Of a stretch of DNA of 16,064 bases, positions 2,338 through 15,731 are shown in pieces. Source of the stretch: a virus; UHGV virus genome UHGV-0097682, one strand, 5' to 3'. The notes beneath the pieces were generated by a model. It saw only the letters and a program-made list of their open reading frames with translations. It was not told the origin of the DNA and ran no database searches. Position numbers and translations under genes: made by a program. The first letter of the stretch is position 1. Every line of letters begins with the position of its first letter.

Positions 2338-2571
2338 ATGTCAACGAAGAACAGAACCCGCAGAACAACAACCCGCAACATCCGCTTTCCTAACCAAATG
2401 ATTGAACAAATTAACATCGCTCTTGTTCAAAAAGGGTCCGGGAATTTCTCAGCCTGGGTCATTGAAGCCTGCCGCCGGAGACTGTGCTCAGAAAAAAGAG
2501 TTTCGCCTGAAGCAAACAAAGAAAAGAGTGACATTACTGAATTGCTCAGAAAACAGGTCAGACCAGATTGA
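2338..2571 (+). CDS. Small basic hypothetical protein, possible ribbon-helix-helix DNA-binding fold; resembles a small lambda right-arm ORF
   Basis: Track ORF MSTKNRTRRTTTRNIRFPNQMIEQINIALVQKGSGNFSAWVIEACRRRL... has a basic N-terminus and an RHH-like segment. The N-terminal two thirds match a lambda right-end ORF as I remember it; the C-terminus differs. Confidence 0.55.
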   Translation: MSTKNRTRRTTTRNIRFPNQMIEQINIALVQKGSGNFSAWVIEACRRRLCSEKRVSPEANKEKSDITELLRKQVRPD

Positions 2572-2628
2572 AGCAATTTAGATAATCGTGCAGACTACGC
2601 CCCCTCATATCACATGGAAGGTACTACA

Positions 2629-3039
2629 ATGGCTCAGGTTGCCATTTTTAAACAAATATTCGATAAAGTGCGAAATAATTTAAACTATCACTGGTTTTAT
2701 TCTGAACTAAAACGTCACAATGTCTCACATTACATTTACTATTTAGCCACAGAGAATATTCATCTTGTTCTTGAAAACGATAATACGGTTTTAATAAAAG
2801 GACAGGGTAAGGTTGTAAATGTAAGATTTTCAAAAAATAAATGCCTTATAGAAGCCACCTTAAAAGGATTCAAATCAGGAGAGTTATCATTTTACGAATA
2901 CAGGAAAAATCTTGCTACAGCAGGGGTTTTCAGATGGATTACAAATATCCACGAAAACAAAAGGTATTACTATACCTTTGATAATTCATTACTCTTTACT
3001 GAGAACATTCAGAACACTACACAAATATTTCCGCACTAA
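2629..3039 (+). CDS. Hypothetical phage protein, AT-rich; resembles the lambda right-arm 'putative envelope protein' / E. coli YbcV-like family by recollection
   Basis: Track ORF 2614-3039. The likely true start is the ATG at 2629 ([11 protein letters not shown]...), preceded by ggaagg at 2616-2621. A hairpin at 3049-3085 lies just past the stop. Confidence 0.6.
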
Positions 3040-3632
3040 ATCATAACGTCCGGTTTCTTCCGTGCCAGAACCGGACTCGCTGGCATGATGAAATATGTGT
3101 ACCCGGTAACCCCGGTGTGCATCGTTTTTGATTATTCCCGCACACTCGCGCAGAAGGAGTTCCCCGTCGGGCTACGGTCTCTGTTAATACGGGAATACGG
3201 CGACGATACAGCGCATGATGTGTCAGGCTTGAATACCTTTATCCTTTAAAAGGGATATCAGTTAAGTTATCCCGTGTAGGGTATAAGCCATTATCAAAGC
3301 CACTCTGTAGGGAATGGCTTTTGTGATGGCATCACTTACTCTTTACGCTGCTATCCCACTCATCCCGGAATTTTGATGGGTTATTGAAACCTTCTGCTGA
3401 CATAACAACTCCTTCAATGTTTGGCTGAAATTAGGATGTCTTTCCATCAGTCCGCCACCACAAAGAATCTTTTTTGCCATAAGGCAGGAGGTTCATCTTT
3501 CAGTGGCTGCCGGTGTTATTTCCCCACTTACTGGCTTGGGTTGTTTCGTGGTACTGCCGTTAACTGGTGGCCCAGAATAAATTCCGGTTTCATTATCAAG
3601 CCCACCCGTAGATAGGCTTTGTAATGACATCT

Positions 3633-4157
3633 TCAATTAATCAGCAGTTCAGGCTGTGTCACCTGCAAGATGTATTCATGCTCGACAGCCAGGACACGCT
3701 TCTCTTTCTTCCGTTCGTTCATTAACCGACTGCCGATCGTACCTTTCAGCTTTGAGCGTGTTTCTTTGATGGCGTAGCGGTGCTGCATTTCTTCGCCAAT
3801 TGCCATGCGGCGGCTCAGTTGCTCTGCCATCCAGTTGAATGCTGCGATATAGCTCTCCTTGATTGCCGCAGCAGCTTTCCCGGTGAACCCCATCACAACC
3901 ATGATCCAGCCATCTTTCGTCAGGCTGTACATCGGGCGAACCTTGCCCTGCTCATCGATATAATCAGCCGACGCAAAATTGCGTTGGCTAAACTCACGCG
4001 AGCAATCAGCCTTAACCTGCTCGATTTTCCTGAGAACATCACCGTGTCGCTTGCCGAAGTACTTGGCAATTTTTCTGGATGTGGTAACGACCTCTCCGTT
4101 TTTGGCTTGCACCATTTCTCGGAAGTCGAAGGCTGGAATAACTGAATGATTATTCAT
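3633..4157 (-). CDS. Rha-family phage regulatory protein (antirepressor-like)
   Basis: Track ORF 3633-4193 begins at a GTG. The internal ATG at 4155-4157 (MNNHSVIPAFDFREMVQAKNGEVVTTSRKIAKYFGKRHGDVLRKIEQV...) is the more likely start. The N-terminal region looks like the Rha/phage-regulatory domain family. Confidence 0.6.
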   Translation of the reverse strand: MNNHSVIPAFDFREMVQAKNGEVVTTSRKIAKYFGKRHGDVLRKIEQVKADCSREFSQRNFASADYIDEQGKVRPMYSLTKDGWIMVVMGFTGKAAAAIKESYIAAFNWMAEQLSRRMAIGEEMQHRYAIKETRSKLKGTIGSRLMNERKKEKRVLAVEHEYILQVTQPELLIN

Positions 4158-4299
4158 AGCGTCTTTACCTTTTAGAAAGTGAGCCTGTCTCACAGAAAAG
4201 CCGCCCGAGAGAGGTCGCCACCTATAACGGCATTTCTCAGGCTCGCTTACTGAAAGGCTCTCGTTAATATGCGCGTGAGATGCGCTGTGAAATTCAGAT

Positions 4300-4324
4300 A
4301 TAAAAAGCCCCGCGAATGCGAGGC
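4300..4324 (-). terminator. Probable rho-independent terminator downstream of the lysis cassette
   Basis: Minus-strand RNA gccucgcauucgcggggc forms a GC-rich stem (one G-U pair) followed by uuuuuauau. It lies between the Rz stop and the Rha start. Confidence 0.4.
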
Positions 4325-4498
4325 TAAATCCTGGTATTTGTAATGACTGGCTCTTATCTCAACGCAGCCCCTTACCGCGCGCAAGATGCTCAATATCAAG
4401 CATCAGCAATGAGATGTTTAATCTGGATTCACTCCAGAAGTGATCACCATCCTGTCTACAGAGCCAGATGTGAAGGATGATGAGTAAAATTATCGCTA

Positions 4499-4966
4499 TC
4501 ATCGAAGGCATTGCGTCCTGATGTATTCCTGAAGCGTTCTCAGTGCTGTTTGGTCGCGGATAATTCCGTCCCGGATACCGAGAACGTTTCGTCCAGCAAC
4601 TGGAGAGAGTTCGACGGTGGCATCATTGCCCATGCCGGAGGCGCTGGAGGTTTCGGCTGAGGATGGCACAGGGCATTTTCCTTTGACGAGCACCCTGCCA
4701 CCATTATCAAGCTTGCGCCGAAGAGCATCATTTTCAGCTTTCGCATCAGCTAACTCCTTCGTGTATTTAGCATCGAGTGCATCAGCAGCACGCTGGCGTC
4801 GCTGCATGTCAGTAATGGTGGCGGCCGCCTGCTTCAGCTCACTGACTTTTTTATCACGCTGTTCTTTGTAGGCGATGGCGTTATCACGGTAATGATTAAC
4901 AGCCCATGACAGGCAGACGATGATGCAGATAACCAGAGCAGAGATAATCGCGGTGACTCTGCTCAT
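4499..4966 (-). CDS. Rz: Rz i-spanin (inner-membrane spanin subunit)
   Basis: Track [34 protein letters not shown]... The first ~30 residues are lambda Rz-like with an N-terminal TM segment; the C-terminal half diverges from lambda. Its ATG overlaps the R stop (ATGA). Confidence 0.9.
4540..4746 (-). CDS. Rz1: Rz1 o-spanin (outer-membrane lipoprotein), embedded in the +1 frame of Rz
   Basis: Track [25 protein letters not shown]... has a signal peptide with lipobox VAGC and a Pro-rich segment ([16 protein letters not shown]). It is wholly embedded within Rz, as in lambda. Confidence 0.75.
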
Positions 4967-5439
4967 ACCTCAATCTCTCTGACCGTTCCGCCAGCCTCTT
5001 TGAATTTTGCAATCAGGCTGTCAGCCTTATGCTCGAACTGACCATAACCAGCCCCCGGCAGTGAAGCCCAGATGTTGCTGCAACGGTCGATAGCCTGACG
5101 GATATCACCGCGATCAATCATCGGCAAAGCGCCACGTTCCTTAATCTGCTGCAGCGCAACAGCGTCCTGGCTTTTGGGAGAGAAGTCTTTCAGGCCAAGC
5201 TGCTTACGATAGGCATCCCACCAACGGGAAAGAAGCTGGTAACGTCCGGCTGCTGTTGATTTGAGTTTGGGGTTTAGCGTGACAAGTTTGCGAGGGTGAT
5301 CGGAGTAATCAGTGAATAGCTCTCCGCCTACAATGACGTCATAACCGTGATTTCTGGTTTTCTGCCGTCCGTTATCTGTTCCTTCTGACCACGCCAGCAT
5401 ATCGAGGAACGCCTTACGTTGATTATTGATTTCCACCAT
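4963..5439 (-). CDS. R: Endolysin R (lambda-type lytic transglycosylase), 158 aa
   Basis: Track [52 protein letters not shown]... is near-identical to lambda R by recollection. Confidence 0.95.
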
Positions 5440-5746
5440 CTTCTACTCCGGCTTTTTTAGCAGCGAAGCGTTTGATAAGCGAACCAATCGAGTCAGTACC
5501 GATGTAGCCGATGAACACGCTCGTTATATAAGCGAGATTGCTACTTAGTCCGGCGAAGTCGAGAAGGTCACGAATGAACCAGGCGATAATGGCGCACATC
5601 GTTGCGTCGATTACTGTTTTTGTAAACGCACCGCCATTATATCTGCCGCGAAGGTACACCATTGCAAACGCAAGGATTGCCCCGATGCCTTGTTCCTTTG
5701 CCGCGAGAATGGCGGCTAACAGGTCATGTTTTTCTGGCATCTTCAT
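5423..5746 (-). CDS. S: Holin S (class I, lambda S107/S105 dual-start type), 107 aa
   Basis: Track [32 protein letters not shown]... is near-identical to lambda S. The Met1-Lys2-Met3 dual-start motif is present. Confidence 0.95.
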
Positions 5747-5988
5747 GTCTTACCCCCAATAAGGGGATTTGCTCTATTTAATTAGGAATAAGGTCTATTA
5801 CTGATAGAACAAATCCAGGCTACTGTGTTTAGTAATCAGATTTGTTCGTGACCGATATGCACGGGCAAAACGGCAGGAGGTTGTTAGCGCAGCCTCTTGC
5901 CACCCGCTTTCACGAAGGTCATGTGTAGAAGGCCGCAGCGTAACTATCACTGATGAGTTCAGGATAGCCAGTGGCTACGGCTCAGTTA

Positions 5989-6064
5989 TGGTGCTGGTTA
6001 ACGGACTTGAACCGCTACCCATTCGCTTACAAGGCGACCGCTCTACCATTGGAGCTAAACCAGC
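5989..6064 (-). tRNA. tRNA, anticodon read as UGU (Thr); 76 nt with encoded CCA
   Basis: Minus-strand sequence GCTGGTT-TA-GCTC-CAATGGTA-GAGC-G-GTCGC-CTTGTAA-GCGAA-TGGGT-AGCGG-TTCAAGT-CCGTT-AACCAGC-A-CCA folds by hand into a canonical cloverleaf. The acceptor stem is a perfect 7 bp; the D-loop has GG and the T-loop is TTCAAGT. The anticodon stem has one mismatch. Confidence 0.6.
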
Positions 6065-6069
6065 ATATT

Positions 6070-6144
6070 TGGCGGGACAGCGTGGACTCGAACCACGATA
6101 AGAAGGTTAACAGCCTTCCGTAATGACCTTTATACGACTGACCC
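6070..6144 (-). tRNA. tRNA-like gene, anticodon read as GUU (Asn); 75 nt with encoded CCA
   Basis: Minus-strand sequence GGGTCAG-TC-GTAT-AAAGGTCA-TTAC-G-GAAGG-CTGTTAA-CCTTC-TTAT-CGTGG-TTCGAGT-CCACG-CTGTCCC-G-CCA. The anticodon and T arms are perfect. The acceptor stem has one T-T mismatch and the D-stem is only 3 bp, so it may be partly degenerate. Confidence 0.5.
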
Positions 6145-6145
6145 A

Positions 6146-6207
6146 AATAAAAAATCCCGAAACCGTTGTGCAGGCTCTAACTATTACCTGCGAACTGTTT
6201 CGGGATT
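6146..6207 (-). terminator. tR' terminator (end of the short pR' leader transcript, lambda 6S RNA equivalent)
   Basis: Minus strand reads aucccgaaac...guuucgggau followed by uuuuuuau, a long GC-containing stem with a U-run. It lies about 190 nt downstream of the predicted pR' start, matching the lambda arrangement. Confidence 0.7.
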
Positions 6208-6339
6208 GCATTTTGCAGACCTCTCAGCCTGCGATGGTTGGAGTTCCAGACGATACGTCGAAGTGACCAACTAGGCGGAATCGGTAGTAAGCGCCGCCTC
6301 TTTTCATCTCACTACCACAACGAGCGAATTAACCCATCG

Positions 6340-6376
6340 TTGGGTCAAATTTACCCAACTTTATTCAAAAAGTCAA
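6340..6376 (-). promoter_or_regulatory. Late promoter pR' with expected qut site (Q-utilisation)
   Basis: Minus strand has TTGACT (-35; plus-strand 6371-6376), a 17-nt spacer and TAAATT (-10; plus-strand 6348-6353), immediately downstream of the Q stop. The sequence matches lambda pR' by recollection. Confidence 0.7.
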
Positions 6377-6418
6377 TATTATGCCGTTAATATGTTGCCA
6401 TCCGTGGCAATCATGCTG

Positions 6419-7042
6419 TTAACGTGTGACCGCATTCAAAATGTTGTCTGCGATTGACTCTTCTTTGTGGCATTGCACCACCAGAGCGTCATACAGCGGC
6501 TTAACAGTGCGTGACCAGGTGGGTTGAGTAAGGTTTGGGATTAGCATCGTTACAGCGCGATATGCGGCGCTTGCTGGCATTCTTGAATAGCCGACACCTT
6601 TGCATCTTCCGCACTCTTTCTCAACAACTCTCCCCCACTGCTCTGTTTTGGCTATATCAACCGCACGGCCTGTACCGTGGCAATCTCTGCATCTTGCGCC
6701 CGGCGTCGCGGCACTACGGCAATAATCCGCATAAGCGAATGTTGCGAGCACTTGCAGTACCTTTGCCTTAGTATTTCCTTCAAGCTTTGCAACGCCACGG
6801 TATTTCCCCGATACCTTGTGTGCAAATTGCATCAGATAGTTGATAGCCTTTTGTTTGTCGTTCTGGCTGAGTTCGTGCTTACCACAGAATGCAGCCATTC
6901 CGAATCCGGCTTGTGATTGCGCCATCCCCATAGCAGCCATCACATCAGTACCGGAAAGAGAGTCAGAAGCCGTAGCCCGTGGTGAGTCGCTCATCATCGG
7001 GCTTTTTGGCGAATGAAATTTAGCTGCGCTTTCGAGTCTCAT
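6419..7042 (-). CDS. Q: Late-gene antiterminator Q (lambda-type), 207 aa
   Basis: Track ORF MRLESAAKFHSPKSPMMSDSPRATASDSLSG... is near-identical to lambda Q. The zinc-binding Cys cluster (CRDCHGTG...CGRCKG) is present. Confidence 0.95.
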   Translation of the reverse strand: MRLESAAKFHSPKSPMMSDSPRATASDSLSGTDVMAAMGMAQSQAGFGMAAFCGKHELSQNDKQKAINYLMQFAHKVSGKYRGVAKLEGNTKAKVLQVLATFAYADYCRSAATPGARCRDCHGTGRAVDIAKTEQWGRVVEKECGRCKGVGYSRMPASAAYRAVTMLIPNLTQPTWSRTVKPLYDALVVQCHKEESIADNILNAVTR

Positions 7043-7227
7043 GGCCTTCCCCTTTTGCCCTGTTTGACCATCAGGACGCCGTTAACTATTACGTGACGCT
7101 CGCCTTTGCTGTCTCGGTTGTACTTGAGCACTGTTCCTCTTGCGCAGGAAAGCATCCTTGCCACTTCGGTCTGATTGCCTCGTGTCTGGATAAGAAGCTC
7201 TGGTATCGTTTGAATTGTGGCGTTCAT
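7039..7227 (-). CDS. ninH: NinH-like small protein
   Basis: Track ORF MNATIQTIPELLIQTRGNQTEVARMLSCARGTVLKYNRDSKG... resembles lambda NinH (TIPDML..GNQTEVARRL..SRGTVRKY). It overlaps the Q start and the RusA stop (ATGA). Confidence 0.7.
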   Translation of the reverse strand: MNATIQTIPELLIQTRGNQTEVARMLSCARGTVLKYNRDSKGERHVIVNGVLMVKQGKRGRP

Positions 7228-7586
7228 GCGTTCTCCAGTTCGGTGATTTTTATTCCAAGCCTTCCGCCTGGTACTTTCACGCCACGAATTACGCGAATGT
7301 CATCGAATTGCTCGTCGTCTTCCGCAAATCCGGCGTGGATAAGGGAGTCGAGTAAACCTTTCAGGATGTTGTCGAGGTCGCGACGGCGGGAGTCCGGAAC
7401 GTCTACGATGACTTTGATGCGGAGTCGTGATTTGGTGAAAATGTCTAACTTAAGTTGGCGGATGATTTGCTGAACGTCTTTTCGGTATTTCTGGCCTTTA
7501 TCGCTGATGTAGTATTGGCTTCCCCGTCTTCGCCAGTAGGTGTTCAGCGACGGCGGGTATGGAAGCACAAACTGATATTCGTTCAT
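7224..7586 (-). CDS. rusA: RusA-family Holliday-junction resolvase, 120 aa
   Basis: Track ORF MNEYQFVLPYPPSLNTYW...RRRDLDNILKGLLDSLIHAGFAEDDEQFDDIRVIRG... has the same length and conserved acidic motif (RRRDLDN) as E. coli DLP12 RusA. Confidence 0.85.
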   Translation of the reverse strand: MNEYQFVLPYPPSLNTYWRRRGSQYYISDKGQKYRKDVQQIIRQLKLDIFTKSRLRIKVIVDVPDSRRRDLDNILKGLLDSLIHAGFAEDDEQFDDIRVIRGVKVPGGRLGIKITELENA

Positions 7587-7873
7587 GGTTTAATCTTCCC
7601 CTCCTTCAGCAGTATCGCCTGCGTCCTGATCACGCCTTCGAGGTGGTAAAGTCTGGCGTCTTTGTTGTCGAGATTATGGGTGCGTCGGTCGATTTCATCG
7701 TGACACGCGCTACAAGCCCATGCGCCGATCAGGTCGTCAGGCTTCATTCCAGTTCCGCAAATTCCAGCCATCCGGTAATGTGCCAGAACTGTAGTTTCAG
7801 GATTACCATTGCATATTCCGTAAATACGTACCTGGCATTCTCTGCCGCGTGCTTCTTTGCGTAGGTTAGCCAT
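7583..7873 (-). CDS. Cys-rich nin-region protein (YbcO/DUF1364-like, putative nuclease)
   Basis: Track ORF of 96 aa with several Cys and His (CQVRIYGICNG...CGTG...CSACHDEID). It sits directly upstream of rusA, as ybcO does in DLP12. Family assignment is from memory. Confidence 0.6.
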   Translation of the reverse strand: MANLRKEARGRECQVRIYGICNGNPETTVLAHYRMAGICGTGMKPDDLIGAWACSACHDEIDRRTHNLDNKDARLYHLEGVIRTQAILLKEGKIKP

Positions 7874-8142
7874 TATGGTTCACTCCAGTAATTCTCAATT
7901 GCAGCAGCCATTCTCTGCATCCACTCAGCCAGCTTTAACGCAGCTTCTCTTTCAGAACCACATTTAGGGAAATCCTTCATTTCCATGCTGGCCTTATATG
8001 TTCTGAATGCCAGGTCTCCGGTAATAACCAACTCCTGATCAAGCACCGAGCGTTTATTCCGGTGTTGAACGTAATAGACAGATTCAGTCCGCATTTCTTC
8101 TCTGTCTTTTTTGAAGGAAATAAGCTCAGAGAAATCACTCAT
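7873..8142 (-). CDS. Hypothetical nin-region protein, 89 aa
   Basis: Track ORF. It is translationally coupled at both ends: its ATG overlaps the NinF stop, and its stop shares 1 nt with the next gene's start. Confidence 0.5.
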   Translation of the reverse strand: MSDFSELISFKKDREEMRTESVYYVQHRNKRSVLDQELVITGDLAFRTYKASMEMKDFPKCGSEREAALKLAEWMQRMAAAIENYWSEP

Positions 8143-8311
8143 CGTCTTCTTCCTCGTACATTGAGCTATTCGGATCGCTCATCAGTTCTGCGCAGCAATC
8201 GGAGCACACGTGAACTTCAAGCACATGCAGCTTCTGACCGCAGTTAGCGCACGTTAATGCCCGCTCGACGCTTTCTTTCTGGTATTGAAGGGATTGGGAT
8301 GGGCTAAGCAT
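8135..8311 (-). CDS. ninF: NinF-like protein, 58 aa
   Basis: Not in the track (under 60 aa). Hand translation gives [58 protein letters not shown], near-identical to lambda NinF by recollection. Confidence 0.75.
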   Translation of the reverse strand: MLSPSQSLQYQKESVERALTCANCGQKLHVLEVHVCSDCCAELMSDPNSSMYEEEDDE

Positions 8312-8729
8312 TATTGGCGTCCTGCATCATGAGAAATACAATCATGGCGGCGCGGAGTGGAGATTCACCGCAGAAGTAGTAGCCAGGAATATTTTCCCAT
8401 TCCCAACAACCTTCCTCTAAATCACCTCCTGACCATGCGCACCATTCTTTTTCCGCTGTCATCCACATAGTGCTGATTTTGCTTTCAGTGATAATTGGCC
8501 ACGCGTATTCAGGATTATTGCAAGGATTGAAGCAATTTCCGTTTGAAGAACGGAAGCCATTAATATCCCTTTTTTGCGTCTGCCAAATAGGACCTCTTTC
8601 GTCAGTGGGGATCTCAGAATCGAAGTCTGCTTCGTCATCAGGTATGAAGAAATGCTCCTCCATATCTAAAGCCTCACATACTCGTCTGTTAATTTCAAAA
8701 TCACTTAACTGTGAATAATCCATTGTCAT
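8304..8729 (-). CDS. Hypothetical acidic, Trp/Cys-rich nin-region protein, about 141 aa
   Basis: Track ORF 8304-8765. The probable start is the ATG at 8727-8729 ([16 protein letters not shown]...), which overlaps the NinE stop (ATGA). Confidence 0.55.
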
Positions 8730-8902
8730 TTCCTCGCACGATGTCTTAGCAACCGGATATCCCACAGGTGAGCCGTGTAGTTGAAGGTTTTTACGTCAGA
8801 TTCTTTTGGGATTGGCTTGCGTTTATTTCTGGTGCGTTTCGTTGGAAGGTATTTGCAGTTTTCGCAGATGATGTCGGTGATACTTCGTCGCTGTCGCCTC
8901 AT
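8726..8902 (-). CDS. ninE: NinE-like protein, 58 aa
   Basis: Internal start of track ORF 8726-8947. [50 protein letters not shown]... matches lambda NinE by recollection. Its ATG overlaps the NinB stop. Confidence 0.7.
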
Positions 8903-9309
8903 TCGTACCTCCTGTCGGTAAATCTGACACCCTGACCAATAGCCCATGCTGTTGTGTACTCGATCAGACTTGCCATACGCTTCACACTCATCTGCGCGCT
9001 GCTTTCGCGAATGTTGACGTATTCGCCTTCAAGCCCGGGCAAAACATCAGCTTCCTGTTTTGTTGCCACTGCATGACCGCTGATCAACAAAACCTTCCAT
9101 TGTTCTGGTTTTAACCATTTATCGCGCCACTGAACTTGCCTAGCGATATCTGCGACCATCGCGTGAAATTTTGCGTTCTGGTCAAGGTTGCGCTTGTAGT
9201 CAGTAATGCGGATGGTGACTGGCTTGTCTTTATCGAGTGGTGTTGCGAGGATGGCATTTATTGCAGCTTGCTGTTGTTGCTTAGTTCGGAGGAAGATTGT
9301 TTGCTTCAC
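8899..9309 (-). CDS. ninB: NinB-family recombination protein (Orf-like), 136 aa
   Basis: Track [24 protein letters not shown]...[21 protein letters not shown]... resembles lambda NinB (LDQNRKLWA..VSRQVEW) and occupies the same position. Confidence 0.8.
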
Positions 9310-9320
9310 TGAATACTCCT

Positions 9321-9512
9321 TTATTTTTTATGCCTGTAACCCCATTCTTCCAGCAACCTTGCGGCGTACCACCCAAGAAACAAAGGAAAGAACATTACAA
9401 TGAGATATTTCCCGCCACGGTCAATGTTCGAAATTGACCAGATTACGATGTAACCAGTGCAGGACAGGAATATTACAAACCCCAAAAAGCTACTTCGTCG
9501 ACTCATGCTCAC
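9321..9512 (-). CDS. Small predicted membrane protein, 63 aa (two hydrophobic segments)
   Basis: Track ORF MSMSRRSSFLGFVIFLSCTGYIVIWSIS...YLIVMFFPLFLGWYAARLL. Its start overlaps the upstream gene's stop (ATGA). Confidence 0.45.
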   Translation of the reverse strand: MSMSRRSSFLGFVIFLSCTGYIVIWSISNIDRGGKYLIVMFFPLFLGWYAARLLEEWGYRHKK

Positions 9513-9925
9513 TCCTTCACTTTGATTCCAGCGGCGCGGATAGCCTCTACATCGCTTTCGTATTGCGATTCTGCACCTGAGTCATAGCCAATGTGATAAT
9601 CACCGGGAAGTGGGCCTTTCTTTGGCTTTTGCAGCTCAATTTCAATAGCTGCTCTCGATGCCTGCCACGTTTGCCAGTGGCCTTGAACATCGTCCATCAC
9701 GTATTGACCACCAATATCACCACTGCCAATTTCATGGTGATTTTCAGGGTAACGGATAAGGTCTGAAGATTCGCCCCCACGTCGTAACCAACTCTCTTCA
9801 AACTGGCATCTGCTTTCGTCATCTTTCATAAGGCAGTCACATTCAATAAAAATCGGCTCTCCCCAAGGAGTAGAACCTCCGCTATCACACATTCCTGTGT
9901 TATTGCACTTTTGGCACTTGCTCAC
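9509..9925 (-). CDS. Hypothetical protein with N-terminal Cys cluster, 138 aa
   Basis: Track ORF MSKCQKCNNTGMCDSGG...IECDCLMKDDESRCQ... has a CxxC...C...CxC pattern suggesting a small metal-binding domain. No family recognised. Confidence 0.5.
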   Translation of the reverse strand: MSKCQKCNNTGMCDSGGSTPWGEPIFIECDCLMKDDESRCQFEESWLRRGGESSDLIRYPENHHEIGSGDIGGQYVMDDVQGHWQTWQASRAAIEIELQKPKKGPLPGDYHIGYDSGAESQYESDVEAIRAAGIKVKE

Positions 9926-9937
9926 ATTAACCTCCGA

Positions 9938-10144
9938 TTAACTCACAAAACGCCACGCCACTTTTGCTACGACAACAGGCATAACACCGATAATCACCCA
10001 CAGAAAAATGCTACCGAAAAGCACACCAACCAGGTCTTTACCTTCGCCTACCAACCGGACAAAACTGCTGGCAACCACAATGAACGTCGCCACCATCCAC
10101 ATAGCACCGAGAATCCTCAATGCAGAAAAAATCAACTCAACCAC
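9938..10144 (-). CDS. Small predicted membrane protein, 68 aa (GTG start in track)
   Basis: Track ORF. It is almost entirely hydrophobic with two predicted TM helices. Confidence 0.4.
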   Translation of the reverse strand: MVELIFSALRILGAMWMVATFIVVASSFVRLVGEGKDLVGVLFGSIFLWVIIGVMPVVVAKVAWRFVS

Positions 10145-10220
10145 GATTTACCCTCCCCCAAATAAAAAGGCCTGCGATTACCAGCAGGCCTGTTACAAGC
10201 TCAGTGATGTAGATGGTCAT
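10137..10220 (-). CDS. Possible 27-aa hydrophobic peptide coupled to the helicase stop
   Basis: Hand translation gives MTIYITELVTGLLVIAGLFIWGRVNRG. Its ATG (10218-10220) overlaps the helicase stop (ATGA). Not in the track because of length. Confidence 0.25.
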   Translation of the reverse strand: MTIYITELVTGLLVIAGLFIWGRVNRG

Positions 10221-11671
10221 CAGAATCCTCCTTTCTTCTTGGACTGCGATTCCTCGCGTTCACGGCGGCGCATTTCAGCAGACTGTTGGTCTGTGTCATA
10301 AATAGCGCCATTTGCCTGAATGCAATACACCGTGCCGGTATTGCCATGACGATTGAGACGAAGGATTAGTTCGGTTTCACCAGGTGGAACACTGTCATCA
10401 AAAGCACCTTCACGATGGATCCCCACCCAATAATCGCAATCCTGTTCAATCTGCCCTGTATCTCGTGAGTCACTTGGTAATGGGCGTTTATTGGTTCGGC
10501 TTTCCAGTGCGCGGTTAAGCTGTGTCAGAAGCACAACAACGCAATCAAGCTCTTTGGCAAGGTTCTTCAGTCCTTTGGTGATCATGCCGTAAGCAAGGTC
10601 GTTGCGATCGGCCTTCTCAGCGGTCATTAGTGTCAGGTAATCGACCAGAATCATGCCAACACATCCTTTTTCTCGCTTGATTCGACGGCTTTCGCTGACG
10701 ATTTGAGCCAGAGATAATCCCGGCGTGTCGTCGATGTAAAGCAGGTCGATTTCACTCAAGCGATTGGCTGTTTCGATCGCCCTGTTGAAGTCACCATCGT
10801 AATCACCCTGATAGCCGTCATCAGCGTCATTTGTCGCCGGAAGGTAAAAAATATTCGGGTTAACACCTGACTTCTGTCCTACCAGTTTTTCCAGTATCTG
10901 GTCACCGGGCATTTCAAGGCTGAACATCAGAGCGGGCTTTTTCTCATGCACTGCGCAGTTGATTGCCATCTGGCTGTATAGCGTCGTTTTCCCCATCTTA
11001 GGGCGAGCGCCAATGACAAACAGAGAGCCTTTCACCAGGCCTTTCGGTGACAGCATCCTGTCCAGCGATGGGATCCCTGTGCTCATTCCTCGTTGTTCGC
11101 CTGACGGGTCAAATCGCTTCTCAAGGTCGCTAACCCAGTCTTCCATGACCTCACCAAATGAGCGAAGGCCGCGACGCGATCCGGTTTTTGCATGGTCTGT
11201 CAGTTGCGTGAAAATCGACTGAATAGCTTCGTACTTCTGCGTTGCAGTCATTCCGTTGCGGGAATAGAGCAATTCCGTCGCTTCAGTCATGCGGTTGATG
11301 GCGTAGCGTTCCATTGCGGTTTCACGAACCTGCATTGCATAGGCAACGATGTTTGCTGCGCTTGGCGTGTTCTTTGCGATCTCAGCGATATAAGCAAAAC
11401 CGCCAACAGACACCGTTAACGATTTACGCTCCAGTTCATCGAAAAGCGTCAGGCCATCTACTGGCTTTTGCTCACGGTGCATTCTGGTTATTTCTTCGAA
11501 AATGATTTTGTGTGGTCGGCTGTAAAATGAATCAGGCTTCAGCATCGCCAGGACTTTCTGGACGCGCTCACTGCTGTCATCATCCAGAAGCAATCCACCA
11601 ATCACCGCCTGCTCTGCCTCGATACTATGGGGCGGCGCATAAAAATTATCGGTCATCGTGTTCACCCTCAC
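10220..11671 (-). CDS. Replicative DNA helicase, DnaB family (P22 gene 12-type)
   Basis: Track ORF of 483 aa with Walker A GARPKMGKTT and DnaB-like motifs (DNA-binding N-terminus, RecA-like C-terminus). The track start is GTG; an in-frame ATG at 11654-11656 (MTDNFYAPP...) is the more likely start. Confidence 0.9.
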   Translation of the reverse strand: MRVNTMTDNFYAPPHSIEAEQAVIGGLLLDDDSSERVQKVLAMLKPDSFYSRPHKIIFEEITRMHREQKPVDGLTLFDELERKSLTVSVGGFAYIAEIAKNTPSAANIVAYAMQVRETAMERYAINRMTEATELLYSRNGMTATQKYEAIQSIFTQLTDHAKTGSRRGLRSFGEVMEDWVSDLEKRFDPSGEQRGMSTGIPSLDRMLSPKGLVKGSLFVIGARPKMGKTTLYSQMAINCAVHEKKPALMFSLEMPGDQILEKLVGQKSGVNPNIFYLPATNDADDGYQGDYDGDFNRAIETANRLSEIDLLYIDDTPGLSLAQIVSESRRIKREKGCVGMILVDYLTLMTAEKADRNDLAYGMITKGLKNLAKELDCVVVLLTQLNRALESRTNKRPLPSDSRDTGQIEQDCDYWVGIHREGAFDDSVPPGETELILRLNRHGNTGTVYCIQANGAIYDTDQQSAEMRRREREESQSKKKGGF

Positions 11672-12545
11672 GAACTTTCAGGTAGGTATTATCGTTAAGC
11701 AGGAAATCAAATCCCTTTTTGTGCCAGACGGTTCCGCGTTGATGGTTTGGGCGCTCTTCGAACATCCATCGGCAATTTTCGCCTACGTAGCTCAAATAAT
11801 TTCTCCAGTCCTGCATCGTGAACCCATGCCCGTCAAGCTGGCGGGTTATCACTCCGGCTTTGCGCCAGAACGTTCGGATCTGGTTTTTACGCTTGTCATT
11901 CAGTGCGCGGATTCTTGGCGCTTCAGGAAGGATTTCGTGGTAAGCATCGACAACATCCTGACAGCTAACGGAAGGTTTTTTCTTGTCAGACTTTTTGTCT
12001 GCTGCGGTACTCTCTAATACGTCAGTATTAGAGATAATATTATTATATTCTTTATCTGTGGTAATTTGCTGGTAATCTGCTGGTACAGTATTGCTTGCAG
12101 GCATTGGTATTGCTGGCTTTGAGGTGGTAATTTGCTGGTAATCTGCTGGTACAAAATTTGACTGATAATCGTCATATTTCTCTACCGAGAAAACTGAGAA
12201 TTTACCGTGTGAAACCCAGTCAATCATGCCGAGTTTTTTGAACTTTCTAAGCAGGTACTGAACGCGATCTGGTTTGAGTCCTGTTTCAAACGCCAGAGAG
12301 TTTCTACCGCCAAGTAGCTTCCCTCTGCCTACCAGAATTTCTCCTGCGTCAGTCATTACATACTCAGGCGTATGCTTTGCTTTGAGGATTAAGTGAACCC
12401 ACAGATGCGCTGCTTCTGCGTCCTTGTAAAACGGCACATCCATAATTTTACGGTGCAGCAAGGCATACCCCTTACCGCTGCTTTGATGCGGTTGTTGTAG
12501 CCTTCTGGCCTCTCTGGCTTCGGCTAGATTAGATATGTTACTCAT
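11646..12545 (-). CDS. Replication initiator (lambda O-analogous); origin iterons embedded in the coding sequence
   Basis: Track ORF of 299 aa directly upstream of the helicase and downstream of cII. It contains an internal repeated peptide ([10 protein letters not shown] twice, 22 aa apart) encoded by DNA direct repeats. Confidence 0.8.
12058..12153. repeat. ori: Putative replication origin: two 30-bp direct repeats (66-bp period), each made of 11-bp iterons tggtaatNtgc, flanked by AT-rich DNA
   Basis: gtggtaatttgctggtaatctgctggtaca occurs at 12058-12087 and again at 12124-12153, with a degenerate copy (tggtattgctgg) between. AT-rich stretches lie at 12019-12056 and 12154-12180. Confidence 0.6.
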
Positions 12546-12684
12546 GACCTTTCTCCTTCTGCATCAGCTTCACTTTTTCCAACTCAGCCCGGAATCGACC
12601 AGGCTGCTTGAAGCTGGACAGGAAGCGATCACGTAGTATGTGTTTGTGAATTTTGTCCTGGTAAGGACTGAGTTGTTTTGTCAT
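12538..12684 (-). CDS. Possible small ORF (48 aa) between cII and the initiator gene
   Basis: Hand translation gives [48 protein letters not shown]. Its stop overlaps the initiator ATG. No homolog recognised. Confidence 0.35.
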
Positions 12685-12716
12685 AATGACTCCTGTGGAT
12701 TGATCCAGTAATTCCC

Positions 12717-13013
12717 TCAGAATTGCATATCAATTTGCTTAAAATCCTCGGTGGCGGCCGGGGATTTTTTCTTTGTGATTTCATCAAGCGCATACTTAAA
12801 AGCCCTGCTAATCGGACTGATGTCTGATGCCATTCCGAAAGCACACAAGACCGAAGCAATAAATCTCCAGTCCGTTCTGCTTATCTTCGATTCATGACAG
12901 CCAATCATCTTTGCCAGACCGCGCTGGGTAATAGCTGACAGATTGATAAGTAAATCTGTTTCTGCGCGATCAACGTCACGCTGTGATAGTTTGCTGTAAC
13001 TTGTTCTTTCCAT
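12717..13013 (-). CDS. cII: cII-like transcriptional activator, 98 aa
   Basis: Track ORF. It is the same length as lambda CII and shares its C-terminal tail ([18 protein letters not shown] here, NKKRPAATERSEQIQMEF in lambda), plus an HTH segment ([14 protein letters not shown]). It sits between cro/nutR and the replication genes. Confidence 0.85.
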
Positions 13014-13098
13014 TTCTTAAGATTTCCAATAGTGAATAGTTAGTTGAAAGGTATGCGTGGAAACGCATATGGCCTTAGTTGGTCAGATATCTTGGAAC

Positions 13099-13144
13099 TC
13101 GCTTTTCAGCGACGTAGGACGAATGTCCGTTGTTACAAAGAGCG
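13099..13144 (-). promoter_or_regulatory. nutR: nutR (boxA + boxB) N-utilisation site
   Basis: Minus strand has boxA CGCTCTTTGTAACAA, a 17-nt spacer, then boxB hairpin TCGCT-GAAA-AGCGA (5-bp stem, GAAA loop). It lies between the cro stop and cII. Confidence 0.55.
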
Positions 13145-13154
13145 GATCCGCTTA

Positions 13155-13370
13155 TTAAGCGGCTTTGTGTTCCGGCGGGAACACGTCATCAAGACTGACT
13201 TTTGCGCCTAACTTGTTTAGGCACGCAACAAGAGCACGGCATGTTTTAAGGTCTGGGAAGCGACGACCAGATTCCCAATGTCCGATAGCTCCCTGTGTGC
13301 ATCCAACTGCCTTAGCAAGTGTTGTTTGAGAGATATTCAGTGACTCTCGATATTTTCGTAGGTTGCTCAT
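13155..13370 (-). CDS. cro: Cro-like repressor (HTH), 71 aa
   Basis: Internal start of track ORF 13155-13541: MSNLRKYRESLNISQTTLAKAVGCTQGAIGHWESGRRFP... The ATG at 13368-13370 is preceded by GGAGGG. The HTH recognition helix (TQGAIGHW) is paralogous to the cI one (TQGGIGHW). It is divergent from cI. Confidence 0.8.
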   Translation of the reverse strand: MSNLRKYRESLNISQTTLAKAVGCTQGAIGHWESGRRFPDLKTCRALVACLNKLGAKVSLDDVFPPEHKAA

Positions 13371-13487
13371 ATGCCCTCCATAGTAAACACGAATAAAAAA
13401 ATACAATATGTACTTTGCGAATACAAGTAAAAATACATATTGTGCATGGATGGTTCCAGTACAGAGCGTAATAATAAGGACATGAAA
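13371..13487. promoter_or_regulatory. OR operator / pR-pRM divergent promoter region
   Basis: Intergenic region between divergent cro and cI. Imperfect palindromic sites of the form TACA-N3-TGTA occur at 13402-13412 (tacaatatgta) and 13434-13444 (tacatattgtg), with a weaker candidate between them. Confidence 0.6.
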
Positions 13488-14138
13488 ATGAAATGGTATG
13501 AACTGGCTAGATCCAGAATGAAAGAGCTCGGCATAACTCAAGAGAAGTTAGCCGAAGAGCTAGGTATGACGCAGGGTGGGATTGGACACTGGTTGCGCGG
13601 ATCTCGTCATCCATCTCTTAGTGATATTGGTGTGGTGTTTAAATACCTTGGTATTGATAACATATCATTCAACCACGACGGGACATTTTCACCTGTTGGC
13701 GAATACTCATCGGCCCCAGTTAAAAAACAATATGAGTACCCTGTTTTTTCTCATGTTCAGGCTGGGATGTTCTCTCCAGAACTCAGAACCTTTACCAAAG
13801 GCGATGCGGAGAGATTGGTAAGCACAACCAAAAAAGCCAGTGACTCTGCATTCTGGCTTGAGGTTGAAGGTAACTCAATGACCGCACCAACAGGTTCCAA
13901 ACCCAGCTTTCCTGACGGGATGTTAATTCTGGTTGACCCTGAGCAAGCTGTTGAGCCCGGCGATTTCTGCATAGCCAGACTTGGTGGTGATGAATTTACC
14001 TTCAAGAAACTGATCAGGGATAGCGGTCAGGTGTTTCTACAGCCACTAAACCCACAATACCCAATCCCATGCAATGAGAGTTGTTCCGTTGTGGGGAAAG
14101 TTATCGCCAGCCAATGGCCTGAAGAGACGTTTGGGTGA
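13488..14138 (+). CDS. cI: CI repressor: N-terminal HTH domain of non-lambda specificity fused to a lambda-type C-terminal autocleavage/dimerisation domain (S24-like)
   Basis: Track ORF 13440-14138. The likely start is the ATG at 13488 (MKWYELARS...), with aagga 8 nt upstream; the ATG at 13482 is an alternative. The C-terminal ~130 aa match lambda CI by recollection, including the Ala-Gly cleavage site (VQAGMF), the catalytic Ser (GNSMT) and Lys (FTFKKL). The N-terminal domain differs from lambda. Confidence 0.9.
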
Positions 14139-14177
14139 TGAAACCACTTTTATCTACAATTTACAGGGCGGTAAACA

Positions 14178-14735
14178 TTGGCAAAAATAGATGATTATCA
14201 GCCAAGCCAAGTAGAAGTTGATAAAGTACTTTATTGTAAAAAAATAGTTAACTTTTCTGGCGTTAAATGGAAACAGAAACCAAGTCGCTCTGATATGTGG
14301 CTACAAGCCCATATCATCCCCTTGGATGAGGATTGTATACCTATACAAGGGCTAAAGTTTGAACTGAAATGGAAACCAGATCAGGATTCAGAACCTGATG
14401 ACCCGATTTCTTACCCTAAAATAAATATTATTGCTTTCTATCATAACAAGAGGGTTTTCGCGGTAGATACCTATCACTTTGACAAACACACGAATAGTTA
14501 CAAGGTCGATCATCCGAAGTACCAAGATATCATTTACGGTGCTCACTACCATGTATACTATGAAGAAGCTGGATACTATAGTGATAGAATAGCGTTTCCA
14601 ATCGAAGATGACATAAACCCAGATGACCTGGTAGGGTATTGGAATTACTTCTGTAAACATCTGAACATAACTTACTCTGGGAGAATACCTTTACCGCTTG
14701 AAGATGAGTCGGGGCAAATGGGGTTTGGAATATGA
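14178..14735 (+). CDS. Hypothetical protein, 185 aa, His/Tyr/Asp-rich; first gene of the AT-rich operon downstream of cI (rexA position)
   Basis: Track ORF with a TTG start; the first in-frame ATG is at codon 40. There are no TM segments and no Walker motif. Codon usage is visibly AT-rich compared with cI. Its stop overlaps the next gene's ATG (ATGA). Confidence 0.6.
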   Translation: MAKIDDYQPSQVEVDKVLYCKKIVNFSGVKWKQKPSRSDMWLQAHIIPLDEDCIPIQGLKFELKWKPDQDSEPDDPISYPKINIIAFYHNKRVFAVDTYHFDKHTNSYKVDHPKYQDIIYGAHYHVYYEEAGYYSDRIAFPIEDDINPDDLVGYWNYFCKHLNITYSGRIPLPLEDESGQMGFGI

Positions 14736-15484
14736 TGTGCTCAACAGTGATCTCACAACTAGGTTTCGAATGCCATCCAATAGGCAAGACCTTGAGAATT
14801 ATCAGTCCATTCACTTACTGTGATGATGGAGAGCATGTCGGTGCCTTTATCCGTGAAGTCAATGGTAGGTATTTAGTTAGTGACAGATGCGATGCCTTAA
14901 TGAATATGGAGGCAAGAGGGATCTCGCTTACCAAAAAACGACTTGATGAGATACGACAATTACTGCTTAAAGAAGGCGCAGAACTCAATGCTCGAGGAGA
15001 AATCATTGCTTGGGCAACAGAAAAGGATGTCGGTGCGATTACATCGAACATAATTAGAGCTGGTATACTCGCATCAACTTTGTCGTTAGACTGGTATCAG
15101 CCAGTTCAAGCTGAAAAGTTTGAAAGTATGGTTATTGATTATCTATATCACACAGAGCTTAGAGACGCACTTTCTCTTCGTGAAAACGTATATGGCTTGA
15201 GTGGACATCAAATTACCGTCCCTGTAACAATAAAAACCGACATACCTAAATACGTTTTTACATCAAGCGTGAAACACGGAGGAAGCTGGAATAGTGCTTA
15301 CTCATTGCTTGGGAAACTAATTGATCTTAAAGCTTCAAGTGAGGAGTATAACAACAGATTTGTTGTTATAGACAGCGAAGCAATTGGTGATCAAATGCAA
15401 CAACTCTCCTTACTCTTCCATGAATCAAGCCAAGTTCTACCATTCTCCAAAAGAGAGACTTGGGTTAAGAGACTTGCAGCATAA
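14732..15484 (+). CDS. Hypothetical protein, 250 aa; second gene of the cI-downstream operon (rexB position, but not RexB-like)
   Basis: Track ORF MMCSTVISQLGFECHPIGKTLRIISPFTY... appears soluble and has no recognisable catalytic motif by eye. It is followed by a terminator. Confidence 0.65.
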   Translation: MMCSTVISQLGFECHPIGKTLRIISPFTYCDDGEHVGAFIREVNGRYLVSDRCDALMNMEARGISLTKKRLDEIRQLLLKEGAELNARGEIIAWATEKDVGAITSNIIRAGILASTLSLDWYQPVQAEKFESMVIDYLYHTELRDALSLRENVYGLSGHQITVPVTIKTDIPKYVFTSSVKHGGSWNSAYSLLGKLIDLKASSEEYNNRFVVIDSEAIGDQMQQLSLLFHESSQVLPFSKRETWVKRLAA

Positions 15485-15489
15485 TACAA

Positions 15490-15515
15490 CCCGGCCTCAG
15501 CGCCGGGTTTTCTTT
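15490..15515 (+). terminator. Rho-independent terminator ending the cI operon (tImm-like)
   Basis: Stem cccggc / gccggg with a 6-nt loop, followed by ttttctttg, 6 nt after the stop of the 250-aa gene. Confidence 0.55.
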
Positions 15516-15702
15516 GCCTCACGTTCGCCCACCTAAAAACACATAACCAATTATATTTATTGAAAAATAAATAGATGCAACCCACTAAACCACGCAATTC
15601 TGATCTCTCCTTACATCGCCGAGGCAATACATCCACGCTAAAAAACAACACTATTAAATACAAAGCGTTATAAAAAACCACGCCAACTTACAACAAATTA
15701 TA

Positions 15703-15731
15703 TTGATCTTGTAAAGTACATATCGTACTAT
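15703..15731 (+). promoter_or_regulatory. Putative pL promoter with overlapping OL operator
   Basis: TTGATC (-35, 15703-15708), a 17-nt spacer and TACTAT (-10, 15726-15731). The operator-like palindrome tacatatcgta (15717-15727) overlaps the -10. The orientation and distance to nutL and N fit the lambda layout. Confidence 0.45.

Follow-up and report, generated by a model that had tools for sequence, protein, structure and literature searches.

A two-gene operon directly downstream of a phage repressor gene

We analyzed a 16,064-nt stretch of viral DNA from the UHGV virus genome UHGV-0097682 (hereafter "the window", meaning the whole stretch at its full length), with a focus on two adjacent genes, here called A and B, that directly follow a cI-type repressor gene. 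An earlier annotation made from the DNA letters alone (hereafter the sequence-only reading) had proposed that this pair is an exclusion or defence module expressed in lysogens from the slot held by rexA-rexB in phage lambda. The open reading frame (ORF) coordinates, lengths, start codons, ATGA overlap and 39-bp gap that it gave were all reproduced here:

14178-14735, + strand: gene A, 185 aa, TTG start (ORF table)
14732-15484, + strand: gene B, 250 aa, ATG start (ORF table)
14139-14177, + strand: cI-A spacer, 39 nt, with a weak purine-rich AGGGCGG before the TTG (sequence reading)

The cI stop codon at 14136-14138 is followed after 39 nt by the start of A, and the A stop and B start codons overlap as ATGA at 14732-14735. 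The unusual TTG start of A, with no in-frame ATG before codon 40, had already been pointed out from the sequence, and holds up: codon 40 is the first in-frame methionine, and homologues of A begin at the equivalent codon, with an N-terminus of the form M-A/G-K-K, using TTG in Aeromonas, GTG in Klebsiella and ATG in Thorsellia. The TTG start is thus supported by sequence comparison with other genera. Neither protein contains transmembrane segments, based on a hydropathy scan (Kyte-Doolittle, 19-residue window, maximum mean of 0.45 for A and 1.19 for B) and on AlphaFold2 models that are compact soluble folds. Signal peptides were likewise found in neither, and both proteins are acidic (isoelectric points of 5.3 and 5.9). 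Together with the absence of Rex homology in Pfam, NCBIfam, PHROGs and PADLOC, this agrees with the earlier statement that the pair is not RexA/RexB-like.

The two genes are also compositionally distinct. Their GC content is 39.6%, versus 46.3% for cI and a mean of 47.1% (standard deviation 3.6) across all 1307-bp windows; a GC content as low as that of A and B is reached in just 0.4% of these, and the lowest one begins at 14141. The visibly AT-rich character previously noted relative to cI was therefore confirmed, with A-B being near the lowest 1.3 kb of the window. Elsewhere in the window, a second strongly AT-rich stretch was observed around 2400-3050 (GC content of 32-38% in 400-bp windows), which holds a 141-aa ORF on the + strand (2614-3039) and is possibly another moron.

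Organization of the surrounding immunity region

The region around A-B displays the layout of a lambdoid immunity region, with the following features:

13155-13370, - strand: cro-like gene, 71 aa, divergent from cI (ORF, translation MSNLRKYRESLNISQ...)
13402-13414 and 13432-13444, no strand: OR-type (right operator) operator-like motifs between cro and cI (motif count)
13446-14138, + strand: cI-type repressor (Pfam Peptidase_S24, E 3e-26; HTH_3, E 2e-10)
15488-15517, + strand: intrinsic terminator closing cI-A-B (hairpin 15488-15509, then T-rich TTTTCTTT)
15715-15727, no strand: OL-type (left operator) operator-like motif, after the terminator and upstream of N (AGTACATATCGTA, 1 mismatch to the OR motif)
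15921-16013, + strand: N antiterminator gene remnant, 30 codons with an arginine-rich motif, cut by an IS66-family insertion at ~16010

Candidate starts for cI are found at 13440 (TTG), 13446 (ATG) and 13482 (ATG). In the identical regions of E. coli Nissle 1917 and phage PhiR57_1, the repressor is annotated as a cI / LexA family protein and the cro-like gene as a Cro / helix-turn-helix (HTH) regulator; the annotated order there is cII and cro on one strand, cI, A, B and N on the other, and sieB after N on the first strand. The 13-mer AGTACATATTGTA (≤2 mismatches) occurs three times in the 16 kb versus 0.19 copies expected, twice between cro and cI and once at the OL position. The latter copy lies ~200 bp past the A-B terminator and pairs with 13396-13416 as inverted repeat I1. 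Based on the positions of these operator-like motifs, A-B is bracketed by OR and OL, as lambda rexA-rexB is.

The sequence-only reading was right in calling a terminator after B, but its position is 15488-15509 rather than 15490-15515. The hairpin (inverted repeat I10) has a stem of 8 pairs, 6 of them GC, and a 6-nt loop, and its position is analogous to that of lambda tIMM. From cI to the end of the window, no other terminator-like site was found on the + strand, including in the cI-A spacer. Promoter-like matches in the region were at chance level, with 5 found versus 6.9 expected from shuffled sequence. The proposed rexAB-slot position was hence borne out: A and B lie between OR and OL, co-oriented with cI, and no terminator intervenes before the end of B.

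Identity to the intact 90-aa N of Nissle 1917 stops at 16009, where the end of an IS66-family element begins. The same junction is annotated as "antitermination protein N" followed by "IS66 family transposase" in the avian pathogenic E. coli (APEC) strain IMT5155, in DE17 and in VTB96815v. Since N is cut after codon 30, the prophage represented by the window is probably defective, while cI-A-B is intact. In a separate part of the window, two adjacent tRNA genes were detected at 5992-6144 on the - strand (Rfam, 61 and 55 bits), within the rightward operon, where they have the nin region on one side and the late genes on the other.

A-B is a portable cassette found in many E. coli prophages

We next evaluated the distribution of A-B in E. 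coli and its phages. At ≥99% identity, the pair was detected in 241 of 5426 complete E. coli genomes, with one copy in each and all copies chromosomal. These strains include Nissle 1917, in which A-B is 100% identical to the window, ATCC 25922, NU14 and APEC strains. A-B was also found in five distinct sequenced E. coli phages, namely ev207, ev017, PhiR57_1 (99.8% identical to the window from cI through B), PhiR63_2 and the Shiga toxin (Stx) phage Stx1_121427, an Stx1a phage. From the listing of ECOR13 as host, we suspect that the PhiR phages with A-B originate from Brenes and Laub 2025.

Comparison of these loci shows that repressor and cargo are not fixed to one another. In Stx1_121427, an identical A-B lies behind a different 234-aa repressor and ahead of a different N. 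Conversely, the cI allele of the window is associated with other ORFs in the same slot in many Stx phages (including AP005153) and in PhiR11_1/2G7b, and the slot cargo of PhiR11_1 and AP005153 gave no PADLOC match. The allele is 98% identical in many Stx1 and Stx2 phages, in which homology ends at approximately the cI stop codon (query 1-737). Alignment of 13400-14138 with AP005153 and other Stx phages therefore suggests that the cargo slot begins at a recombination boundary. Overall, A-B is a compositionally foreign and portable cassette that swaps between immunity regions, which bears out its earlier designation as a horizontally acquired moron: the composition is foreign, the same pair is found behind different cI and N genes, and the same cI is found with other cargo.

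The cassette is also retained in decayed prophages. The Nissle 1917 locus carries at 11710-13315 a frameshifted transposase of the IS3-family element ISEc52 and a truncated integrase next to icd, so that this prophage is likewise decayed yet has an intact cI-A-B. The window as a whole was contiguous in none of the 5426 complete E. coli genomes, with a best coverage of 60% (3238-13045), and in APEC IMT5155 the replication/nin segment and the cI-A-B-N/IS66 segment are ~3.6 Mb apart. The lack of a contiguous match and the split in IMT5155 indicate that the window is a mosaic absent from that genome collection.

One alternative is that A-B benefits the host in ways that have nothing to do with phages, as a moron with a metabolic, stress or virulence role that simply takes advantage of a constitutively transcribed slot. 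The slot is a generic lysogenic-conversion site, with unrelated cargo behind the same cI, and A-B is common in strains of the extraintestinal pathogenic E. coli (ExPEC)/APEC type and in commensal strains, both of which would fit. Against it stand the absence of any signal peptide, transmembrane segment or match to a metabolic or virulence family, the indication of defence by two independent predictors (see below), and the occurrence of relatives in restriction-modification (RM), BREX or DISARM contexts. We consider this the least probable of the alternatives weighed here.

Matches to predicted defence families

Across Pfam, NCBIfam, PHROGs and PADLOC, matches for A and B were limited to DUF6978, DUF1828, PDC-M24 and PHROGs of unknown function; the Pfam scan returned DUF6978 and DUF1828 only, and NCBIfam nothing useful. 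PDCs are 145 candidates that were nominated for lying inside loci of the BREX, DISARM or type I RM kind (10.1101/2024.01.29.577857), among which PDC-M24 corresponds to cassette CAS_00098, FAM_00129 followed by FAM_00065 (Payne et al., 10.1101/2024.01.29.577857). A second, rarer cassette combines FAM_00065, the family of B, with a different family (10.1101/2024.01.29.577857). B matched PDC-M24B (PDLC04540) with an E-value of 4.7e-10 over nearly its entire length (residues 2-249 on profile positions 4-254 of 256), and six relatives of B matched PDC-M24B, likewise over their full length, with E-values of 1e-4 to 1.8e-15. For A, the matches to PDC-M24A (PDLC04536; E 4.8e-4) and to Pfam DUF6978 (E 2.2e-4, 22 bits versus a cut-off of 29.6) were both restricted to residues 104-164. 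DUF6978 was also weakly matched by 5 of 15 members of the A family, and several members gave weak matches to three different PDC-M24A models, always in the same C-terminal region.

The second line of evidence comes from DefensePredictor (PMC13092281, Tables S5 and S10), in which WP_000968518.1 (B) has a mean log-odds of 5.64 and WP_001062368.1 (A) values of 4.90 and 5.42. These two accessions annotate the 100%-identical Nissle 1917 locus, and both are labelled "Predicted novel defense gene" in the tables for 69 and 3,000 E. coli strains, with Table S5 giving DUF1829 for B. Computational prediction has thus already singled out the pair, with DefensePredictor naming the exact proteins and PADLOC the family, and the candidate-defence label given from the sequence stands as a prediction.

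The same searches bear on whether A-B could instead be an addiction module of the toxin-antitoxin type that stabilizes the prophage, with no role against other phages. A compact, overlapping two-gene operon with a weak start codon on the upstream gene would be in keeping with such a module, as would its persistence in decayed prophages and a family that is apparently mobile and rare. However, the Pfam, NCBIfam and PADLOC scans linked neither protein to any family of known toxins or antitoxins, neither has an HTH or ribbon-helix-helix autoregulator domain, and no promoter of the pair's own was detected above chance, reliance on the repressor promoter being atypical for these modules. Many toxin-antitoxin modules are, moreover, defence systems, which makes this explanation overlap with the reading we favour. 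As a distinct explanation, we regard it as very unlikely.

An obligate pair repeatedly associated with phage repressors

Close homologues of the pair (47-84% identity for B and 59-71% for A) occur in Enterobacterales and Aeromonas only. A profile of A searched against 1.84 billion representative proteins yielded 20 clusters, few enough to make A a rare family. B follows A, and the stop codon of A overlaps the start codon of B (mostly by 4 nt), in 16 of 16 tabulated loci, with A identity down to 21-28%. A DUF1828 protein of 245-255 aa lies directly downstream of each A relative inspected.

Upstream same-strand neighbours were compared for 15 loci and comprised 12 Peptidase_S24 repressors, one RacR-like HTH protein and two non-repressors. 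The co-occurrence with repressors in other prophages that had been suggested as a check is therefore seen at most of these loci. The 12 S24 repressors, from E. coli to Aeromonas, share 17-56% identity with the cI of the window, and the RacR-like neighbour lacks an S24 domain and lies opposite ydaS/ydaT. The association extends to the Pseudomonas phage VB_PaD_phPA-G (Detrevirus, PP083311.1), in which a cI-like repressor is followed by a 216-aa ORF, an A-family ORF and a B homologue. This A-family ORF (3486-4004, E 4e-22 versus the A profile) is located between CDS0028 and CDS0029 and overlaps the B homologue by ATGA; the deposited annotation of PP083311.1 omits it.

Free-standing chromosomal copies outside of prophages also exist, for example in the order NnrU, A, B, flavin reductase, which implies that the cassette functions independently of a phage repressor. 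A search of 72,556 plasmids returned no homologue of B, and no RM or BREX genes were found in the examined flanks of the window and related loci. The survey of distant contexts was small, the locus search with a closer alignment of B giving 8 loci. Taken together, the sequence comparisons indicate that A and B form an obligate pair and constitute an autonomous module, one that has been captured repeatedly behind phage repressor genes. As a separate observation, prophages of Izhakiella and Providencia share a conserved 113-aa ORF (MAFNDIE...) between the repressor and A that is absent from the window (5044-5385 in locus L025, 5053-5394 in L027 and 5052-5393 in L028).

The frequent proximity to a repressor raises the question of an accessory role in lysogeny control, in which A-B would act on RecA-mediated repressor cleavage, induction frequency or the lysis-lysogeny decision. 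A repressor of the autocleaving S24 type lies upstream in 12 of the 15 loci, and there is a precedent in Hex of phage 434, where a non-Rex gene co-transcribed from PRM (the promoter of repressor maintenance) reportedly blocks RecA-mediated autocleavage (PMC3564112). A function directed at the repressor is nevertheless hard to picture when the partner repressors are only 17-56% identical and one is RacR-like without an S24 domain. Likewise difficult to reconcile with it are the free-standing copies outside of prophages, the distant relatives embedded in RM, BREX or DISARM loci, and the intact A-B in defective prophages that are beyond productive induction. A lysogeny-control function thus strikes us as decidedly unlikely.

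Predicted folds and conserved residues of A and B

The AlphaFold2 model of B (predicted local distance difference test score of 83) comprises two domains. Residues ~1-116 correspond to DUF1828 and are predicted to adopt a fold similar to YbjN and type III secretion chaperones, while residues ~129-250 correspond to DUF1829 and are predicted to adopt a PD-(D/E)xK-clan fold with an alpha-beta-beta-beta-alpha-beta core. In an alignment of relatives down to 31% identity, however, the catalytic D...(D/E)xK signature was not found in B, as a conserved acid is missing from the start of beta2 and (D/E)xK from beta3. Residues that are invariant in this alignment are C3, G11, C14, S25, P26, D32, G33, E34, D51, R70, G89, W121, F130, G155, S157, G158, P164, G194 and D198. 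We read the C-terminal domain of B as a probable degenerate or non-canonical nuclease fold. The earlier remark that no nuclease motif is recognizable consequently holds for the catalytic residues, which are not conserved, but not for the fold, as the C-terminal half of B falls in a nuclease clan.

This fold leaves room for B being catalytically active, as a non-canonical nuclease of the PD-(D/E)xK type that acts directly against incoming DNA, with A as a specificity, activating or inhibitory subunit. The candidate residues argue otherwise: besides the missing beta2 acid and beta3 (D/E)xK, H159 is replaced by isoleucine in one relative and K173 is variable. In addition, the DUF1829 protein of the HipAD defence system has been proposed to be a regulator and not the effector. 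We therefore consider an active nuclease unlikely.

Protein A is a soluble beta-rich protein in its AlphaFold2 model, and no structural relative of A was found in the Protein Data Bank (PDB). Searches against PDB chain sequences with single sequences and profiles of A and B returned chance or compositional matches only, such as designed Kelch or DARPin proteins, with zero significant stretches. The family alignment shows conservation of K22, W31, R92, D97, H104, N106, H123, H125, F158, P173 and a C-terminal G-Q. H104/N106 and H123/H125 are each alternate residues on predicted strands, a geometry typical of metal or ligand sites, and we infer that the conserved Asp/His/Asn/His/His cluster of A may be such a site.

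A candidate prophage-borne defence cassette

The best explanation for these observations is that A-B is a divergent lineage of PDC-M24, the DUF6978 + DUF1828/DUF1829 cassette, that has adapted to prophages. Its position in the immunity region, the absence of an internal terminator, its repeated capture behind unrelated repressors and its retention in decayed prophages indicate selection for expression in the lysogen. At the same time, the repressor-independent copies and the relatives embedded in restriction or BREX loci argue against a function on the phage's own switch. Based on this combination, defence is the best-supported role, and we consider it somewhat likely, on balance, that A-B protects the lysogen against other phages, i.e., that it is a predicted candidate defence cassette.

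Under this hypothesis, temperate phages would carry A-B directly behind the repressor gene so that it is expressed constitutively in the lysogen, together with cI, from PRM, and protection would occur by superinfection exclusion or abortive infection. B may be a sensor or regulator. Its chaperone-like N-terminal domain would have a protein as binding partner, either A or one from a phage, while the degenerate nuclease-fold C-terminal domain would serve as a binding module. A would be the effector, with the Asp/His/Asn/His/His cluster as a putative metal-dependent catalytic site, and its weak TTG or GTG starts along with the conserved overlap might keep the level of A at or below that of B. This assignment of A as effector and B as regulator is suggested by the presence of the only catalytic-looking cluster in A, the loss of the nuclease motif in B, the regulator role proposed for the HipAD DUF1829 protein, and the weak starts and overlap of A. 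A more specific version can be formulated, in which A is a new enzyme fold and the effector of a repressor-coupled immune module, B restrains A and releases it on sensing an invading (likely temperate) phage, and the module replaces RexAB in lambdoid and D3-like prophages from E. coli to Pseudomonas; we put this forward tentatively, as rather doubtful in its full form.

Several points weigh against the interpretation of A-B as a defence cassette. The link from A to PDC-M24A and DUF6978 is weak (E ~1e-4, C-terminal 60 residues, below the Pfam cut-off), and the putative metal site is drawn from residue conservation and secondary-structure position. With the D...(D/E)xK motif missing from B and both proteins acidic, neither nuclease activity nor DNA binding is indicated. 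Co-transcription of A-B with cI is something we infer from the layout and the lack of an internal terminator. Both accessions are absent from DefensePredictor Table S6, which lists the units selected for screening. In the literature, Brenes and Laub 2025 being outside the scope of this search, we found no experimental phenotype for A-B, nothing functional on DUF1828, DUF6978 or PDC-M24, and the accessions of A and B in no main text. Finally, deletion of the icd-integrated lambdoid prophage NC-SV, which may or may not carry A-B, from NC101 altered plaque size for 2 of 4 virulent phages and not plaque counts (PMC12803456). The plaque effect was assigned to svsR, a small RNA at the 3' end of cI (PMC12803456).

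If A-B is an active defence system, it would affect the phage susceptibility of a probiotic chassis (Nissle 1917) and of a quality-control strain (ATCC 25922), and it would influence how Stx phages and other lambdoid phages compete. The DUF6978/DUF1828/DUF1829 cassette would gain a first function, and two predictions would become a validated system. More broadly, A-B would then count as a defined cargo of the classical rexAB slot, for which variability among lambdoid phages is poorly catalogued. The proposal is directly testable, as the cassette spans 1.3 kb and its conserved residues are available as mutational targets, and nature provides isogenic comparisons of the same cI with different cargo and of the same cargo with different cI.

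Comparison with known systems

Two candidate counterparts were considered and set aside. For svsR/C0293, comparison of e14 C0293 with the cI region of the window gave a score of 19 versus a shuffle mean of 17.3, which is not above chance; the local RNA fold at the 3' end of cI (14050-14140) exceeded shuffled sequence in stability only mildly (z -1.9). For the 'pr' gene of Nissle (PMC5987069), the cloned fragment has a length of 410 bp and was not placed at the A-B locus.

Lambda rexA-rexB offers a positional parallel. In both cases, with presumably the same expression, two genes occupy a terminator-closed slot after cI, between OR/PRM and OL/PL, and both pairs are accessory to lysogeny and variable between lambdoid phages. 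However, the Rex proteins have no sequence similarity to A and B and differ from them in size and fold. RexB is a polytopic membrane protein, whereas A-B includes no membrane protein.

Other prophage genes share parts of this arrangement. Hex of phage 434 is a non-Rex gene on the PRM transcript with the repressor in lysogens (PMC3564112). Unlike A-B, Hex consists of one ORF, part of which overlaps the coding region of the repressor, and its target is RecA-mediated autocleavage. The bstA gene adjoins a repressor gene as well. BstA of prophage BTP1 is a prophage-encoded abortive-infection defence protein (PMC8585504). It differs from A-B in that one protein is sufficient and is accompanied by a dedicated self-immunity element, anti-BstA, and PADLOC matched A and B to PDC-M24 only.

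At the domain level, HipAD (DS-6) is a validated two-protein defence system of E. coli (PMC13092281) in which a DUF3037+DUF1829 protein partners a HipA-like kinase and was proposed by the authors to regulate that kinase (PMC13092281). Its second protein resembles B in having DUF1829 fused to another N-terminal DUF. The partner in HipAD is a HipA-like kinase and the N-terminal domain is DUF3037, whereas here the partner is A and the N-terminal domain DUF1828, and no homology was found between A and HipA.

Finally, PDC-M24 differs from the present cassette in two respects: A is very divergent here, and the window as well as 13 of the 15 related loci have the pair behind a phage repressor and not within BREX, DISARM or type I RM loci. 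In gene content, PDC-M24 resembles the present cassette: A precedes B on the same strand, B has a full-length match, and A has a weak match that covers the region of the conserved histidines.

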